This document shows, in pieces, positions 3,335 through 55,270 of a DNA stretch of 64,000 bases. Positions within the stretch are counted from its first letter, which is position 1. Each line of letters starts with the position of its first letter. Both the position numbers and the translations under genes were made by a program. Source of the stretch: a virus; IMG/VR virus record IMGVR_UViG_3300046514_000687, positions 47,031-111,030 of that record. One strand, 5' to 3'. Below the pieces are notes generated by a model, which was not told the DNA's origin, did not search any database, and was given only the letters and a program-made list of their open reading frames with translations.

Positions 3335-3706
3335 CTAGTCGTCGGGCAGCATCAGCGCCCGGCGGAAGATGCCGACGATCTGGGCGTGCTTGGCCGCGGC
3401 CTCCTCCCAGGTGTCCCAGCTCCAGCTCATCTCCGATCCCTTGTCCTCCGGGCCATCCTGCATCTGCAGCAGCGTCTCGAAGAGGGCGACCGGCTGCCCG
3501 GTGAGCAGGCTCTGCGCGCTCTGGCCGAGGAAGACCGTGCTGACGCTGGCGGAGCGCTCGGTGGCCGGGTCTTTCCAGCGCCAGAGGCCGACGCGCCGCG
3601 CCGCGATGTCCTCCACCAGCACTCCCCAGGCGAGCGCGTCCGGCGCCGGCACGGGCGTCTGTCCGTCTAAGACCCAGAGGCCACGGCTGAGCTGCGGGTC
3701 GCTCAC
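3335..3706 (-). CDS. hypothetical phage protein
   Basis: VSTVFLG...LFET...TWEEAAAKH motif typical of small phage proteins; GTGA overlap. Confidence 0.7.
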   Translation of the reverse strand: MSDPQLSRGLWVLDGQTPVPAPDALAWGVLVEDIAARRVGLWRWKDPATERSASVSTVFLGQSAQSLLTGQPVALFETLLQMQDGPEDKGSEMSWSWDTWEEAAAKHAQIVGIFRRALMLPDD

Positions 3707-4356
3707 CAGTGCACGTACTCCCGCGCGGCCAGGAGGTCGGCCGCGAGTCGCCTAATATCCCCACCGCGCTCGCCCTGCAACAGTGCCTGGCCCCCACGGC
3801 GCCAATAAACAGCCAGCATTACAATCTGGCGCCAGATTGCATAGTCGTGCGCCTTCTTAGTCCGTAACGGATAGGCGTCAAAGTGCGGGATAATGGCGCT
3901 GTACAGCACGTCCCGATGGCCGACCTTCCATGTCAGGGTCGGATGTTCGCTAGGAGACACCCGCTTCCCGGCGTAGAGAGCGCCAATGCCGGTAGTCTCC
4001 CGGACTTCCTCAAGAACTGCGCGGTCGTCATCTCGCAACTTGATCTCGAAACAAAGGGTCAGGTGGCCTCTCAGTACCGAGGCCCGAAAGTGTCCCTCGC
4101 CATCGGTCAACCCAGTAAGCCAGGCGCCAAACAAGGGGTCGTAGGCTGGGATCTGCAGTGGCGGCGGCTGAAACTCTGACCTCACCTGATCCGCTCGTTC
4201 TCGTAAAAGCGCCTTCTCACGACGGTAGTAGTAGGTCTTGCGGCTTGCCTTGCGGCAGGTGCGGCAAGCGCGGAATCCATCGGGCGTCCAGTATAGGTTG
4301 CTACCGGAGTACGGATGCCCGGCTGGGCAATGGGTATGCTGCACGGCTCCTACCAC
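3703..4356 (-). CDS. free-standing LAGLIDADG homing endonuclease with N-terminal Cys/His module
   Basis: WLTGLTDGEGHF motif, IPHFDAYPLRTKK; N-terminal THCPAGHPYSGSNL...CRTC; lower GC3. Confidence 0.85.
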   Translation of the reverse strand: MVGAVQHTHCPAGHPYSGSNLYWTPDGFRACRTCRKASRKTYYYRREKALLRERADQVRSEFQPPPLQIPAYDPLFGAWLTGLTDGEGHFRASVLRGHLTLCFEIKLRDDDRAVLEEVRETTGIGALYAGKRVSPSEHPTLTWKVGHRDVLYSAIIPHFDAYPLRTKKAHDYAIWRQIVMLAVYWRRGGQALLQGERGGDIRRLAADLLAAREYVHW

Positions 4357-4643
4357 TGGATGTACTCCAGGGTGGGGTCGCCACCTGGGCGGCGCCTACC
4401 GGTAGCGATGTCTCGATACCATCCGGTAGGCTCTCCCTCTCCACTCCAAAGCTGGAAGGCGACTACAGCCGCCCACAGGTCCGGGTATCAGTAGGTGGCG
4501 TCGTAGGTGATCGCCCGCCGGTCGGCGCTGACCGTCAGCCGCGGCAGCGTGTAGCCGAGGTTCAGGTCGAGCACGCGGCCGTCCGGAAACTCGCGGCTCA
4601 GCCAGCCGCGGTCGGGGGTGCAGGGCGCATAGAGTTCATCCAC
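4350..4643 (-). CDS. 97-aa protein with in-frame TGA at 4488-4490 (candidate selenoprotein or readthrough; otherwise pseudogene)
   Basis: MDELYAPCTPDRGWLSREFPDGRVLDLNLGYTLPRLTVSADRRAITYDATY[TGA]YPDLWAAVVAFQLWSGEGEPTGWYRDIATGRRRPGGDPTLEYIQW; GGAG RBS; hairpin just 3' of the TGA; not in ORF track. Confidence 0.7.
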
Positions 4644-4866
4644 GGTTTCTCCGATCCACGACCGCCTGCGCGATCGCCTCCCGCGTCGCCTCGCAGACCG
4701 GCGCGACAGGCAGCTCGCGCGCGACGGCTAGCGCAATCACGGCACACTTCAGGCAGAAGCGGCCCAGCTCGCCGCCCTGCCCGGCCACGACGGCCAGGAC
4801 CGCGCTGCGCCGGCAGCGGCCCGCGTCGCAGCGGCGCACCAGGGGTGCGAGGTACGGTTCGGGCAT
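4636..4866 (-). CDS. small Cys-containing hypothetical protein
   Basis: GGAGG RBS before ATG 4866; CDAGRC...CLKC. Confidence 0.6.
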   Translation of the reverse strand: MPEPYLAPLVRRCDAGRCRRSAVLAVVAGQGGELGRFCLKCAVIALAVARELPVAPVCEATREAIAQAVVDRRNRG

Positions 4867-4874
4867 GATGCCTC

Positions 4875-5030
4875 CTACGCACAGCGCGAGCAGATGCGAG
4901 CGTTGCCGGGCGCTCGCCACAGCGGACACTGTCGCGCCTCGAACACGGCATAGGAGCAGCGCCAGGCCGCCCCGCAGACCGGGCAGCGGTGAGTATGCGC
5001 CGCGACGTCACGCTTGCTGCGGTGGCCCAT
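4875..5030 (-). CDS. small Zn-finger-like protein
   Basis: GGAGG RBS; HRCPVC...C...C...CSRC. Confidence 0.55.
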   Translation of the reverse strand: MGHRSKRDVAAHTHRCPVCGAAWRCSYAVFEARQCPLWRAPGNARICSRCA

Positions 5031-10450: not shown

Positions 10451-11214
10451 TGGAGATGGAGACCGAGATCCGCATCGAGCAGCAGAACGACGGGCGCTGG
10501 CTGGTGATCCTGGTGCGGCCGGTGCTGGAGCAGGCCTACGGACCCTACGACCTGCCGGAGGCCCAGCGCCAGGCCGACCGGCTGCGCAACCTGTACCGCA
10601 GCGAGAACGGCGCCGTCTTAGAGCGGGTGGCTCAGGCCGTCCACGACGGGATGCAGGCCGACGGGCTCAAGCCGTCGGCCTGCATCGCCGGAGCCGCCGC
10701 GATCCGCGACCTGCTGAGCAGCGACGCAGCCGACGAGACGGCGGGCATCTTGCCCGTGGAGCTGGTCGCCGTGACGGCTGCCGCCTTCAACGCGCCGGGC
10801 TGGCGGCTCCTGCTGGCGCACAGCGACCCGCACCGCGACCCGGCGCGCTGGGCCGCCGACGGCGCGTGGAGCGTCGGGCTGGGGTTCGGCGCGGACCCGG
10901 AGCCGGGCCGCTGGCCGGGCCACCTGGTCGCGGTGGTCGACCGCCGCTGGCTGGTGGACCCGACGCTGGGCCAGGCCAGCCGCCCGGACCGGGGCCTAAC
11001 CCTCCCGGATATCCTGGTCCTGCCGCTCACCGAGCGGTGGGTGCGGGGGCGCGAGGACACCGTGATCCGCCTGCCCGGCGACACCACCGTGACCGTCGCG
11101 CGGCGGCGCAATGCCCCGTCTTTCCAGCACAGCCCGGACTGGCGGGAGTCCAGGCGCCGCACTCAGCGCGTGGCTGCGGCGCTGGCCCTGCTCCAGGCTG
11201 AGGAGGCGAGGTGA
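10450..11214 (+). CDS. hypothetical protein, possible transglutaminase/papain-like fold
   Basis: ACI...GHLVAVV...LVDPT gives C-H-D order. Confidence 0.45.
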   Translation: MEMETEIRIEQQNDGRWLVILVRPVLEQAYGPYDLPEAQRQADRLRNLYRSENGAVLERVAQAVHDGMQADGLKPSACIAGAAAIRDLLSSDAADETAGILPVELVAVTAAAFNAPGWRLLLAHSDPHRDPARWAADGAWSVGLGFGADPEPGRWPGHLVAVVDRRWLVDPTLGQASRPDRGLTLPDILVLPLTERWVRGREDTVIRLPGDTTVTVARRRNAPSFQHSPDWRESRRRTQRVAAALALLQAEEAR

Positions 11215-11525
11215 TGGCTAAACTGCCGGTCAACCTGGCGCGCTGCCAGGAGTGCCTCCAGACCTTCACGATCACCCCGCTGCGCTGGCAGCCCAAGCCG
11301 CGACACTGTAGCCTGCGTTGCGTCTGGCGCGGCGAGGCGCGGCGGGCACGCGCGGACGCGGGGCTGCCGGCCTGGTTCCCCGCCGTGCCCGTCAGCCGCA
11401 CCTGTCCCGACTGCGGGGAGACGAAGAACGTCGACCTCTTCGGCCGCCGCAGCTCAGTCCAGCCCGAGTATGTGCAGTCCTACTGCATCAGCTGTCGCAG
11501 CCGCTACGACAGCCGGAGGAACTAG
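11211..11525 (+). CDS. Cys-rich Zn-binding protein
   Basis: CQEC, CSLRC, CPDC, CISC. Confidence 0.6.
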   Translation: MMAKLPVNLARCQECLQTFTITPLRWQPKPRHCSLRCVWRGEARRARADAGLPAWFPAVPVSRTCPDCGETKNVDLFGRRSSVQPEYVQSYCISCRSRYDSRRN

Positions 11526-13096: not shown

Positions 13097-13465
13097 ATGG
13101 ACACCACTGCACCCCGCCTGACCGTCGCCGCCCTGGCCGACCGCCTGCTGGCCCTGCTGCCCGCGCTGGCCGACGACGAGGGCGCCGTAGTGGAGGCTCA
13201 CGCCAGCGTCGTGCTGGCCCGCCGCGACCTCGCCAACGCCGAGATGCACGCCTGGGACCAGGACCTCGTGGAGGGCTCCAACGCCGAGAAGCGCGCCACC
13301 AGCCTGCGGAAGCAGACGCTCCAGGAGATCATCGAGGTCGAGCGCGCGGAGGGGCGCCTGCGCCGCGCGCAGTCCACCCTGCGGGTCCACGAGCAGGAGG
13401 CGCGGAGCCTGCGGGCGATCATCCCCGCGCTGGACACGCGCCTTATCGTCACGGAGCGGGAGTGA
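13097..13465 (+). CDS. helical hypothetical protein
   Basis: GSNAEKR motif; RBS. Confidence 0.6.
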   Translation: MDTTAPRLTVAALADRLLALLPALADDEGAVVEAHASVVLARRDLANAEMHAWDQDLVEGSNAEKRATSLRKQTLQEIIEVERAEGRLRRAQSTLRVHEQEARSLRAIIPALDTRLIVTERE

Positions 13466-13468
13466 GCG

Positions 13469-14898
13469 ATGGACCAGTGCCACTACCACCCGGCGGTCGC
13501 CGGGTGGCGCGTCTGTCCGGGCTGCGCGATCACGCTCTGCGTGATGTGCCCGGCGGAGGTCGCCGGCGGCCAGCTCGCCTGCCGCCGCTGCGGCTACGTC
13601 ATCGGGCAGTTCCGCCAAGCGCCGCAGAGAGAGGAGCCCCCGTGGCCGAGAGTCTAACGATCCCGCTGGTAGGGCCGGCGCGGGCGCCCTGCGCCTGGCC
13701 TGTGCTGCCGGCCTGCCCGCACCTGGCGCGGGTCTACGTGGAGGCGCCGCCCGGCAGCGGCGCGTTCGTCGGGGTCTGCCGCGCCCACCAGCGGCGCTGG
13801 GAGCGTCAGTTCGCCGCGCAGATCGCCGCGCACTACAGGCGCCCCGCCGGCGGGGCGCCTGGCGAAGGGGGGTAAGCGATGCGGTCCAGGGCGAGCAAGT
13901 TCTACGACACGCTAGATTACGAGGTCAGCAACGCCCGCGGGATTGCCTACGCGTTGCGCGAGGAGATCGGCAGCTACTGGCGCCACATGCACCGCTGCCG
14001 CAAAGAGGCTGCCCAGGCAGCGGCCGATCCGCCCGCCGACGCCTACACTCGCACCAGCACGCGGATCAGCGCCGACCGGAGCGAGAGGCAGCTCCGCCTC
14101 CTACTCGGCATCCGGCGCGAGGGCCTGGGCCGGTGAGCGAGCCGTGGCGCGGACCCCACCACAGCGACGACCGCATCTCCTACGAGGCCACAGTCGCCCG
14201 GCAGGGCGCGCGGATCGTGGCTGGACCGCGACACTACTGCCCCGGCTGCGGGCTCGACCTGCCCTGTGCGAACACGGAGCCGGAGGGCTGCTGGGCCTGC
14301 GTCAGCGGGCGGGGGTTCGACATCTGCCCGGCCTGCATGCTCATCGCAGTGGGACAGCGATGAGCGCCCCGAGACTGCGGTTCAGCCTGGTCCACCGGAC
14401 GAGGGACGGCGAGCACGTCGTCCAGCAAGCCGACCACTACGCCGCCATCGCCCAGGCCGCGACGGAGTGGCTTGCGCGCTGGCGCGCGGGGCGCCTGACC
14501 GTGGGGCGGAGCCACTGCCGCGCCTGGGGCGTGAACGCCCACGCCTGGCGGCTGGTCGGCCCGCCGCCAGACTACGACGCGAGCTGGCTAGTCATCGTCG
14601 ATGCGAGGAGGCTCCTGCCATGAGCGAGCGCCAGGCTAGTAACACGGGAGGGCCGGTTTCCGCCGCGCTCCTCGCCTTCGTCCGCGCCTACGCAAACGCC
14701 GACCACCTGGACGCCGACCAGAGCGAGGTAGCGCTCTTCCGCGCCTGGCTTGCCGCCGTCGGCGTACTCGGCGTCCGGGCCGAGGTTCCGCCCCGCGCTC
14801 AGACTGTCATGCGCGAGCATCCCGAGCTGTCCGAACTGCGCTTCGGGCCGGGTGGCGCCGACGACCTGCGGCTGGAGCCGCGCGGGGAGGATGCTTGA
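13469..14898 (+). other. run of six small hypothetical ORFs (13469-13657, 13642-13875, 13879-14136, 14133-14363, 14360-14623, 14620-14898)
   Basis: Tightly coupled starts and stops, several Cys-rich. Confidence 0.55.
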
Positions 14899-20220: not shown

Positions 20221-20296
20221 TGCCCGTGTACCGGCCGGTAGCTGGACGCAACCTATGAAGTTGCGGGAGGAGGTTCGACCCCTCCACGGGCAACCG
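20221..20296 (+). tRNA. non-canonical 8/4 tRNA-like gene, anticodon ATG (would read His CAU)
   Basis: Acceptor TGCCCGTG/CACGGGCA (8 bp), U8A9, D-arm CCGG/CTGG, anticodon arm CGCAAC-CTATGAA-GTTGCG, T-arm GAGG-TTCGACC-CCTC, 3' A-CCG. Confidence 0.7.
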
Positions 20297-52658: not shown

Positions 52659-53545
52659 CCGCCGTGGCGCTGCCGGTGCTGCGGCGCGACGTGTCGCGGC
52701 GACCCGCCGCGGAAGCGAGCGTCCTCGACCTCGGGCTCCGCGCTGCCTGGCTGCGCTTCTTGCGGAGCTGCGCGGATCTGGGCACCGTCGACTGCCAGAT
52801 CGTCGCAGCCAGCGCGCGGGAGGCCGTCGCGCGCATCCGCCACCGCGCGCCCTCCGCGTTACTGCCCGGCCCGAGCCGGCAGTTGGAGGCCGTCTGGTAC
52901 GCCAGCATTGCGGCCGGGACGCCCGATTACGGCGTCTATGTCACCGACGCCTACCTGGGCGACCTCTGGGCCTGCTGGGCCTGCGGCTCGCGGGGCTACC
53001 TGCGCGAGCTGGCCGCACCGCGCGGGCTGCCGCCGGCGGGGTTCCGTCACCACCTCGGGCCCGCCCGCGTCATCGTAGACCTCGGGTGCGGCACGGGCCT
53101 GACCACGGCCGCTCTCTACGAGCTGTTTCCCGCTAGCGTCGTCGTCGGGACGAACCTGCCCGGTACCGTCCAGTGGGCGCTCGCTGCGCAGGCCGCCGCG
53201 CAGTACGGGTTTCGGCTGGCGGCCACTCTCGAGACCTGCCCCGCGCCGGCGGACCTGGTGTTCGCTTCCGAGTACTTCGAGCACTGGGAAGCTCCGCTGG
53301 ACCACCTGGCAGACGTGCTCGCGACGTTGCGCCCGCGCGCCCTGCTGACCGCTAACACGTTTCAGAGCCCCGGCATCGGCCACTTTCCCCGCTATCGCGT
53401 GGCCGGCGTCGCGGCATCCGGCCGCGCGACGGCGATCGCCTTCGCCGCGCACCTGCGCGCCGCCGGCTACACGCGCGTGCCGACCCGGTTCTGGAACCAG
53501 CGCCCGACGTACTGGCGCCGCTCTCTCGCGCCCGAGGAGTCTTGA
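52655..53545 (+). CDS. class I SAM-dependent methyltransferase
   Basis: IVDLGCGTG; DLVFASEYFEH. Confidence 0.8.
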   Translation: MTAVALPVLRRDVSRRPAAEASVLDLGLRAAWLRFLRSCADLGTVDCQIVAASAREAVARIRHRAPSALLPGPSRQLEAVWYASIAAGTPDYGVYVTDAYLGDLWACWACGSRGYLRELAAPRGLPPAGFRHHLGPARVIVDLGCGTGLTTAALYELFPASVVVGTNLPGTVQWALAAQAAAQYGFRLAATLETCPAPADLVFASEYFEHWEAPLDHLADVLATLRPRALLTANTFQSPGIGHFPRYRVAGVAASGRATAIAFAAHLRAAGYTRVPTRFWNQRPTYWRRSLAPEES

Positions 53546-55270
53546 GTGGAAGCGCCGACCCTGCCCCGCTACCCCGTCTACATCCCGTCGGTCGGCCGCG
53601 CCGCGGCGGACATGAGCCTCACGGCTAACTGCCTGACCCGCGACAGCATCCCCTTCTTCCTGGTGGTCCATCCGGAGGAGGCTGACGCCTACGCAGCGCG
53701 GTTCGCCCGCGCGCAGATCCTGGAACTGCCCTTCCCCAAGTGCGGCTACGCCGTGCCCGCGCGCAACTGGATCAAGGCCCACTCGCTCGCAAACGGCGAC
53801 GCGCGTCACTGGCAGCTCGATGACAACATGCGAATGTTCCGCCGCCGCTACCGCGGCAAGCGCATCCCCGTCAAGGCGGGCATCGCCCTGCGCGCTACCG
53901 AAGACTTCGTCGACCGCTACACCAACGTCGCCCTGGCCGCCATCCAGTACACGATGTTCGTGATCGCCAAGATGCCGGCCTTCTACGTCAATGCCCACGT
54001 CTACTCCTGCGTCGCCCCCGAGACGCCCGTCCTCTGCGCGGATCTGGTCTGGCGCGCGGCCGGGGAGCTGGCGGTGGGGCAGGAGATCGTGGCCTTCGAC
54101 GCGGAGCCCGCCCCGGCCGGTCGGGGCGTCAACGCGCGCAGCTACCGCACCGCGACGGTCCAGGCGAACCTGCCCGCGACGAAGCCCTCGTATCGCCTGT
54201 GGACCGATGACGGTCCGCCGATCCAGGCTAGCGCCGAACACCCGTGGCTCGTCTGGCGCGCTCCGTTGCGCCAGCGCCACTGGGGCGATGGGATGCCGGG
54301 AGACCCGCACGGGCGCGAGGAGCTGGGCTGGGTGCCGACCGCTGACCTGCGTGTCGGCGACCGCCTTGCCTTCCTCGGTGCGCCCTGGGAGCGGGACGAG
54401 TCTCACGAGGCTGGCTGGATCAGCGGGCTGTACGACGGCGAGGGCTCCTGCACGGTGCGCCAGCCGCCGGACGGGCGCGGCATCCAGCTCGGCATCGCGC
54501 AGGGCGACGGCCCGGTCCTCGACCGCCTGGTGACCGGACTGCGCGCGCGCGGGTATGGCGTCGGCGTCTCTGGCGCGGGCGGGTCGGGCTCGCAGGTCGT
54601 ACGGACCGCGCGAATCGGCGACGGGTTCCGGGGCGCGCTCCGCTTTGCGGGCGAGTTCGGCCCGACTCGCCTGCTGGCCAAGGCTGCCCAGCTCTGGGAG
54701 GGGCGCGGCGTTCGCCAGGGCCAGTCGTACTCGCTGGCGACGATTACCGAGATCGTGCCGCTGGGCGACCAGCTCGTCGCCTCGATCCAGACCTCGACGG
54801 GGACATTCATTACAGCCGGCTACCTCACTCACAACTGCACGCTGGTCAACAACAGCATCCCCCACGCCTGGCGCGGGCGCTATAACGACGACACGGACAT
54901 CACGCTCCAGGTGCTCGCGGACGGCTGGTGCACCGTCGTGCTGAACGCCTTCATGGTCGACAAGATGCGGACGCTGACGATGAAAGGCGGCATGAACGGG
55001 GTCTACCAGGGCGACGGCCGCCTGGAGATGGCGCGCTCTCTGGAGCGCGTCTGGCCGGGGGTGGTGACCACGATCCGCCGCTTCAAGCGCCCGCAGCACT
55101 GGATCCGGAATCAGTGGCAGCACTTCGACACGCCGCTCCAGTACCGCCCGGACTTCGATCCCACCGCGCTGCCGAAGGTCGACGAGCTGGGGATGGAGCT
55201 GCGCGCCGTCCGCGAGGTGCAGAGCGCCCGCCTGCGCGGGCTGCTGGCCGACCGCGAGCCGCCCTCGTGA
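53546..55270 (+). CDS. TET-associated (TAGT/GREB1-like) glycosyltransferase containing an intein
   Basis: YPVYIPSVGR, ARNWI, HWQLDDN, WRGRYNDDTD, MKGG; intein 54008-54835. Confidence 0.8.
   Translation: MEAPTLPRYPVYIPSVGRAAADMSLTANCLTRDSIPFFLVVHPEEADAYAARFARAQILELPFPKCGYAVPARNWIKAHSLANGDARHWQLDDNMRMFRRRYRGKRIPVKAGIALRATEDFVDRYTNVALAAIQYTMFVIAKMPAFYVNAHVYSCVAPETPVLCADLVWRAAGELAVGQEIVAFDAEPAPAGRGVNARSYRTATVQANLPATKPSYRLWTDDGPPIQASAEHPWLVWRAPLRQRHWGDGMPGDPHGREELGWVPTADLRVGDRLAFLGAPWERDESHEAGWISGLYDGEGSCTVRQPPDGRGIQLGIAQGDGPVLDRLVTGLRARGYGVGVSGAGGSGSQVVRTARIGDGFRGALRFAGEFGPTRLLAKAAQLWEGRGVRQGQSYSLATITEIVPLGDQLVASIQTSTGTFITAGYLTHNCTLVNNSIPHAWRGRYNDDTDITLQVLADGWCTVVLNAFMVDKMRTLTMKGGMNGVYQGDGRLEMARSLERVWPGVVTTIRRFKRPQHWIRNQWQHFDTPLQYRPDFDPTALPKVDELGMELRAVREVQSARLRGLLADREPPS
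54008..54835 (+). mobile_element. intein (276 aa) with LAGLIDADG-like core
   Basis: VYS|CVAPETPV...SAEHPWL...WISGLYDGEG...YLTHN|CTLV. Confidence 0.9.

Follow-up and report, generated by a model that had tools for sequence, protein, structure and literature searches.

A small gene on the minus strand of an uncultured phage (positions 4350 to 4643 of the window) contains an in-frame UGA that is followed directly by a hairpin resembling a bacterial selenocysteine (Sec) insertion sequence (SECIS). The window, as the whole stretch of DNA analyzed here is called, comprises the 3′ 64 kb of a 111,030-bp IMG/VR record (IMGVR_UViG_3300046514_000687) with 70% G+C and an estimated completeness of about 83%. 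Comparison of the gene with its relatives leads us to conclude, with a probability of roughly 80%, that it encodes a phage selenoprotein of about 97 residues with Sec at residue 52, produced through the SelB/SECIS pathway of the host. In the mechanism proposed, the SelA, SelC, and SelD of the host would make Sec-tRNA(Sec), and host SelB loaded with it would bind the hairpin just past the UGA, the apical loop of which would present a G-U dinucleotide 22 to 23 nt downstream of this codon. At the UGA, SelB would compete with release factor 2 to deliver Sec, and the ribosome would then read on into the conserved C-terminal half. One deep lineage of a phage-specific family would use Sec in this manner, with Cys at that position in the other lineages. 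Sec insertion using host SelABC had been put forward in an earlier, sequence-only reading of this DNA, and it is strongly supported by the comparative evidence presented below, from which we infer SelB binding, the insertion itself, and the chemistry of the residue.

The minus-strand frame consists of 51 codons, the in-frame UGA, 45 further codons, and a TAG stop. This arrangement, including the ribosome-binding site that precedes it, was confirmed. Upstream lies the open reading frame (ORF) 4636-4929, the TGA stop of which (4638-4636) overlaps the GTG start.

The read-through translation has many full-length relatives, ranging from 83 to 136 amino acids. A profile search retrieved 1,859 representative clusters at E ≤ 0.001, with a typical member of about 95 amino acids, and a language-model protein atlas queried with a natural Cys-form member returned unnamed clusters that are 71 to 86% viral. 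In the family alignment, a W-C-Y motif is followed by the nearly invariant tail GEP.GW.R...TGRRRPGGDP..EY. The motif that the sequence-only reading had given for small phage proteins (..WCY..WDGxGEPxGWxR..GRRR) proved to be real, and the TGA of the window falls on its Cys. The expectation that this column is occupied by Cys was borne out in 122 of the 171 full-length representatives (71%), the others having E (13), D (10), Q (9), H (4), or another residue. Homologous proteins of about 95 to 100 amino acids are also encoded by isolated phages, namely, Sinorhizobium phage Phosso (XYS97833.1), Caulobacter phage C2 (gp253c), and other Bertelyvirus records. These relatives share the W/Y-C-Y and GEP.GW.R...T.RRR motifs, but they have Cys in place of the UGA, are devoid of the SECIS hairpin, and are annotated as hypothetical.

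No family for the read-through protein was found in Pfam, PHROGs, NCBIfam, or PADLOC. A match to DUF402 (PF04167) stayed below threshold (18.1 bits versus a cut-off of 23.9), was obtained for only 1 of 23 members, and was taken as chance. No conserved gene neighbor emerged among about 170 loci, the largest neighbor cluster being present in 10 of them; the recurrent neighbor clusters are serine recombinases, ParB-like proteins, and helix-turn-helix proteins.

The UGA recurs widely among these relatives. Two database proteins, P0003 (present on 36 contigs) and P0007, are 80% identical to the pre-UGA half and end at the identical codon, which shows that the stop is not peculiar to this assembly. 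Since protein databases hide interrupted genes, and protein-guided searches of viral and metagenome contigs had confirmed no locus, DNA was scanned for the conserved C-terminal motif without regard to gene calls. Among 50 viral-contig loci found in this way, the column holds TGA in 23, TGC or TGT in 24, and TAG, a Tyr codon, and a Phe codon in one each. The eight family members on GTDB genome contigs are divided equally between TGA (four, on contigs of metagenome-assembled genomes [MAGs]) and Cys (four). A TGA-specific scan of metagenome contigs gave at least 120 loci, and among the metagenome matches listed, 112 of the 118 in-frame ones span the profile from the N-terminal half through the tail, giving at least 112 members. 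Viral, MAG, and metagenome contigs together hold more than 130 related sequences with TGA at this column. The family genes have one in-frame TGA each, always at the Cys column; both halves invariably share one frame, and the UGA is all that separates them. UGA and Cys alternate at this position.

The mRNA directly 3′ of the UGA can fold as the sequence-only reading had described, with a CUG/CAG lower stem, a GGCGGC/GUCGCC upper stem, and a UGUA loop from +21. The full upper stem, GGGCGGC/GUCGCCU, pairs positions 4474-4468 with 4463-4457 (7 bp, including two G-U pairs), and the apical loop (4467-4464) begins 20 nt past the UGA and has G-U at loop positions 2 and 3. Below it lie the CUG/CAG stem (4478-4476 with 4454-4452) and a 5-bp stem (4484-4480 with 4450-4446). 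The 45-nt element has a folding energy of −18.2 kcal/mol (z = −2.39), and an equally good fold was obtained in 5 of 200 shuffles. Taken alone, the hairpin of the window is modestly above chance; its significance comes from conservation and covariation in more than 100 relatives. Searches of the site against Rfam gave chance-level matches only. A covariance model built from the viral TGA set (R1) found a single site in the 64-kb window (4440-4490), with a score of 36.7 bits.

Across the TGA members, the alignment 3′ of the UGA is free of gaps, and the loop begins 20 to 21 nt past the UGA. The loops are mostly GGUC and otherwise AGUU, CGUGN, or UGUA, always with G-U at loop positions 2 and 3, on stems of 5 to 9 bp; conservation of the alignment columns G25 and T26 is 90% or higher. 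For an 8-bp helix in 23 viral sequences, 77.7% of the cells are paired, and the covariation is 0.377, a value that none of 500 shuffles reached, compared to 0.130 after shuffling. The result was similar for 74 mostly independent metagenome sequences in a model-guided alignment (82.4% paired; covariation of 0.409 versus 0.165 ± 0.013 in shuffles), where slid controls gave covariation of at most 0.128. Pair 21-32 of this larger set is GC in 23 sequences, UA in 20, CG in 10, and AU in 9. Because columns 21 and 32 are synonymous third positions of Ala codons, this covariation cannot stem from constraint on the protein. The identical structure forced on 25 Cys members gave 44.5% paired cells, which is indistinguishable from shuffles. 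Model R1 assigned scores of 27 to 59 bits to 73 metagenome TGA members and of no more than 19.6 bits to the homologous sites of the Cys type. The hairpin is therefore conserved through compensatory changes in the TGA members, and the Cys members are without it.

The element also agrees with what is established for bacterial SECIS (bSECIS) elements. The bSECIS model has a loop of 3 to 9 nt, an upper stem of 4 to 16 bp, a G in the first two loop positions that usually precedes G or U, a distance of 16 to 37 nt from the UGA, and a minimum free energy of −7.5 kcal/mol or lower (PMC13188914). The window element fits all four bSECIS criteria, with a 4-nt loop, a 7-bp stem, a G at loop position 2, and a spacing of 20 nt; its upper hairpin alone has an energy of −10.1 kcal/mol, compared to the cut-off of −7.5. 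When only contiguous stems were considered, 84 of 121 distinct TGA members passed all four criteria, all with the loop G-U and with a spacing of 20 nt (80 members) or 21 nt (4 members). In most of the TGA members that fail, the hairpin is the same and falls slightly short of the energy cut-off. As for the Cys members, 6 of 25 pass loose criteria, with scattered spacings and without the G-U, and none of the 25 has a hairpin with G-U at 20 to 21 nt.

A cellular comparator was found in the FdnG-type formate dehydrogenase of a Thermomicrobiales MAG (L203:958-1020), which has an in-frame UGA (ENQARI-U-HSSTV). Its SECIS, GUGCCC-GGUCU-GGGCGC, has a 6-bp stem and a GGUCU loop 18 nt past the UGA, and thus the same GGUC apical motif as the phage family. 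The same MAG also carries a TGA-form family member.

Purifying selection acts on the codons beyond the UGA. For 39 moderately diverged pairs of TGA members, the ratio of nonsynonymous to synonymous substitution rates (dN/dS) is 0.14 over the 35 codons that precede the UGA and 0.095 over nine codons past the RRR motif, a stretch that the search pattern left unconstrained. The 15 codons of the hairpin have a dN/dS of 0.38 and a dS of 0.28, versus dS values of 0.52 and 0.71 elsewhere; a low dS is expected where RNA structure constrains synonymous sites. In a maximum-likelihood tree of an unbiased viral set, the Sec label needs 2 changes, compared to a mean of 16.8 when labels are shuffled, and the Sec sequences are separated by long branches. 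Few changes of label together with long branches indicate that the UGA is old and maintained, rather than the product of recent knock-outs.

Several observations weigh against a selenoprotein. About 29% of the Cys-type lineages have E, D, Q, H, or another residue at the column, and such variation would be unusual if a Cys or Sec there were essential for catalysis. The Sec forms cluster on the tree, meaning that TGA and the hairpin became associated in few independent events; the weight of the hairpin case lies in the covariation inside the clade. The UGUA loop of the window differs from the GGUC that dominates in the family, and one viral locus, L010, carries TAG instead of TGA. Moreover, the window copy is chimeric, as described below, and a chimeric copy with a UGUA loop might be less matched to the SelB of the host.

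The tolerance of the column for non-Cys residues in some lineages would also suit a UGA that is a true stop or is read through independently of SelB. The main product would then be a 51-residue peptide, and the hairpin would act in pausing, in mRNA stability, or in the near-cognate insertion of Trp or Cys. A truncated product is to be expected anyway, given that Sec insertion is usually inefficient. Nevertheless, we consider this explanation unlikely: the hairpin agrees with the bSECIS model on each point that the model defines and is similar to the cellular FdnG SECIS, whereas we know of no established bacterial mechanism for hairpin-stimulated UGA read-through. Furthermore, the strict alternation with Cys, and not with Trp, is the classical signature of Sec, and the downstream codons are constrained as much as the upstream ones.

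The alternative raised in the sequence-only reading was a recent TGC-to-TGA nonsense mutation. TGA is one step away from either Cys codon, and the chimeric window copy adjoins a mobile endonuclease gene, so that a Cys-type gene that acquired its TGA from TGC or TGT and is now decaying in this phage might be envisaged. Such a pseudogene is very improbable and is effectively refuted for the family by the more than 130 divergent sequences that share the TGA with no other disruption of the frame, by the dN/dS of about 0.1 after the UGA, and by the depth of the Sec clade. A TGA-specific covarying hairpin is not expected in a decaying gene either. The deep TGA clade and the purifying selection on the post-UGA codons exclude a recent mutation.

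Although recoded phages exist, it is scarcely credible that TGA is a sense codon here (e.g., under genetic code 4 or 25) or is read by an opal suppressor tRNA of the phage, since the upstream gene, the endonuclease gene, and ORF 13097-13465 all use TGA as an ordinary stop, code 11 leaves long ORFs such as that of the terminase uninterrupted, each family gene has its single in-frame TGA at the Cys column, and no UCA-anticodon tRNA or opal suppressor was found in this phage record or in 24 related viral records.

The phage record holds two tRNAs, a tRNA-His and an odd Met-type one, neither of which has a UCA anticodon. The tRNA-His, identified by ARAGORN at 20221-20295 on the plus strand of the window, has the anticodon ATG; the normal anticodon of tRNA-His is GUG. 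The other is a 91-nt tRNA-like gene outside the window (11200-11290 of the record), in which the anticodon stem-loop is of the Met type (CAU) and a segment of about 14 nt in the D-arm region is duplicated. It reached 34.8 bits on the tRNA-Sec model, but it is not a tRNA-Sec. In the 24 other viral records where the gene is interrupted (by TGA in 23 and by TAG in 1), no tRNA-Sec exceeded the Rfam cut-off; the best matches below threshold are ordinary tRNAs according to ARAGORN. With neither a phage-encoded tRNA-Sec nor an opal suppressor found, decoding of the UGA as Sec must use the SelABCD of the host.

In three of the four MAGs with the TGA form, SelB scored higher than its curated cut-off, the fourth having the same contig as one of the three; this is consistent with Sec decoding by a host, albeit weakly, as phage contigs are easily mis-binned. 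SelB was not found in the Agromyces genome that contains a Cys form, for which the binning of phage contigs is likewise unreliable. Two contigs, CADEFQ010000013.1 (L056) and CADEFN010000011.1 (L059), have the same sequence around the TGA-form gene and were binned to two different MAGs, one labeled Proteobacteria and the other Gemmatimonadetes; this split illustrates the unreliability of assigning hosts by binning here. A survey of 401 genomes of Actinomycetes found the family in one, the seed genome. The terminase of the phage is only 28 to 34% identical to those of isolates and did not point to a host.

The structure of the protein was predicted with AlphaFold2 (predicted local distance difference test score [pLDDT] of 88.8). 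The model, which is a confident one, has four β-strands, one helix, and an ordered C-terminal segment, and it places residue 52 at the end of strand 4, just ahead of the only helix. Foldseek gave no match in the PDB, and an exhaustive structural comparison revealed no relative (best VIA-align Z of 4.7), nor did a Foldseek search of BFVD, where the best match was an uncharacterized phage protein (E = 0.013). The end of a strand just before a helix is a usual setting for a reactive or redox cysteine. Given this predicted position and the alternation of Sec with Cys, residue 52 may serve a small enzyme or binding protein as its functional nucleophile, redox center, or metal ligand. A role as ligand or in acid-base chemistry would suit the substitutions by E, D, Q, and H in some lineages at least as well as a redox role.

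The features that the window gene shares with bacterial selenoprotein genes, of which Escherichia coli fdhF is the prototype, are the alignment of UGA with Cys, a hairpin 3′ of the UGA within the coding sequence, and a small apical loop that contains G-U and lies 20 nt from the UGA (PMC13188914). It differs from them in being carried by a phage, with the Sec machinery to be supplied in trans by the host, and in belonging to a new phage-specific family. In the literature searched, no viral selenoproteins are named other than the glutathione peroxidases of two poxviruses, molluscum contagiosum virus and fowlpox virus, and a review of viral recoding from 2021 lists just these two viruses (PMC8310308). 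These are likewise encoded by the virus and dependent on the Sec machinery of the host, and the fowlpox SECIS is also inside the coding region, as in the window gene (PMC8310308). The poxvirus enzymes, however, belong to eukaryotic viruses, are captured cellular genes, and use a eukaryotic SECIS via SBP2; in contrast, the window gene has a bacterial-type SECIS, predicted to be read by SelB, and has no cellular counterpart.

Phages and viruses are not mentioned in a 2026 review of the prokaryotic selenoproteome (PMC13188914). We found no paper on a bacteriophage selenoprotein in the full-text literature, the coverage of which leaves out most subscription journals, so that a report could be missed. 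Whereas the SelB/SECIS pathway is known, its use by a large phage-specific family would be new, and the comparative data support it.

Sec use is commonly regarded as a property of cells. If the window gene and its relatives do encode selenoproteins, phages exploit the SelB pathway of their hosts, and a new selenoprotein family is added. Phage genes of this kind would then be systematically broken up or cut short by gene callers, as in the truncated database entries P0003 and P0007. The TGA form would also provide a sequence marker for host prediction, as phages carrying it should infect Sec-utilizing bacteria. In addition, the compact elements of 35 to 40 nt, set in an Ala-Ala-Val-Ala-Ala coding context, would be natural SECIS variants that could aid the engineering of Sec insertion.

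The locus with TAG at the column (L010; IMGVR_UViG_3300031939_000001, 1475-1575) has an intact GGCCGC-GGUC-GUGGCC hairpin. A TAG-specific scan of viral contigs retrieved L010 only, and a TAA-specific scan of them retrieved nothing. Two reports, both citing Mukai et al. (2016), describe Geodermatophilaceae as decoding UAG as Sec via a tRNA-Sec with a CUA anticodon (PMC5330540; PMC8124441). In such a host, the TAG and hairpin of L010 would be readable as Sec; L010 is, however, a single case and a lead. It is a tentative and rather doubtful idea that L010 is a functional Sec gene for a UAG-Sec host and that the Sec genes of phages track the decoding of their hosts. The Sec form would then make full-length synthesis conditional on host SelB and selenium, with the codon acting as a sensor of host or physiology in addition to providing a catalytic upgrade, and the family would be the first selenoenzyme that is specific to viruses and has a new fold.

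The features of the locus are listed in Table 1.

Table 1. Features of the candidate selenoprotein gene and its neighbor in the window
Feature	Position	Strand	Remarks
Ribosome-binding site GGAG	4652-4649	−	5′ of the GTG start
Pre-UGA half, 51 codons	4491..4643	−	GTG start at 4643-4641
In-frame UGA, proposed Sec codon (residue 52)	4488..4490	−	Aligns with the Cys of the family W-C-Y motif
SECIS-like hairpin	4446..4484	−	Upper stem, UGUA loop, and lower stems, directly 3′ of the UGA
Post-UGA half, 45 codons (YPDLWAAVVAF...TLEYIQW)	4353..4487	−	Holds the most conserved family motif, GEPTGW.R...TGRRRPGGDP
TAG stop of the read-through protein	4350..4352	−	Overlaps the next ORF, which starts at 4356
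Free-standing homing endonuclease gene, HNH-type finger and LAGLIDADG	3703..4356	−	Pfam, PHROGs

The adjacent gene does not belong to the selenoprotein; its assignment is based on a match to LAGLIDADG_1 (PF00961; E = 1.3e-14; 55.3 bits versus a cut-off of 23.1) and on an N-terminal HNH-type finger that matches PHROGs 1492 and 826. A dip in G+C content to 58 to 61% spans the endonuclease. The G+C content at third codon positions (GC3) of the pre-UGA half is 0.92, within the range of the resident genes (0.85 to 0.94); that of the post-UGA half is 0.69, equal to that of the endonuclease (0.69). Because of this equality, the post-UGA half was probably imported with the endonuclease. The end of the endonuclease ORF (...AAREYVHW, followed by the stop) resembles the C terminus of the family. 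On the simplest reading, a homing endonuclease would have entered the 3′ end of the gene and co-converted the region back to approximately the UGA. The chimeric gene keeps its frame, its UGA, and a valid hairpin.

A second TGA in the window is followed by a hairpin with the same apical motif as in the family. At 13463-13510 on the plus strand, the TGA of ORF 13097-13465 is followed 29 nt downstream by a perfect 9-bp stem with a GGTC loop. The adjoining ORF 13469-13657, which is Cys-rich and zinc-ribbon-like, starts one codon past this TGA and has its own ribosome-binding site, GGGAG. The site was rejected as a Sec candidate and read as an ordinary gene junction.

Elsewhere in the window, an ORF of 574 amino acids (53546-55270, plus strand) matches a PHROG annotated as β-glucosyl-HMC-α-glucosyltransferase (E = 4e-32), which hints that the phage may modify its DNA with sugars. 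An ORF of 754 amino acids on the opposite strand (52859-55123) overlaps it and is probably spurious.

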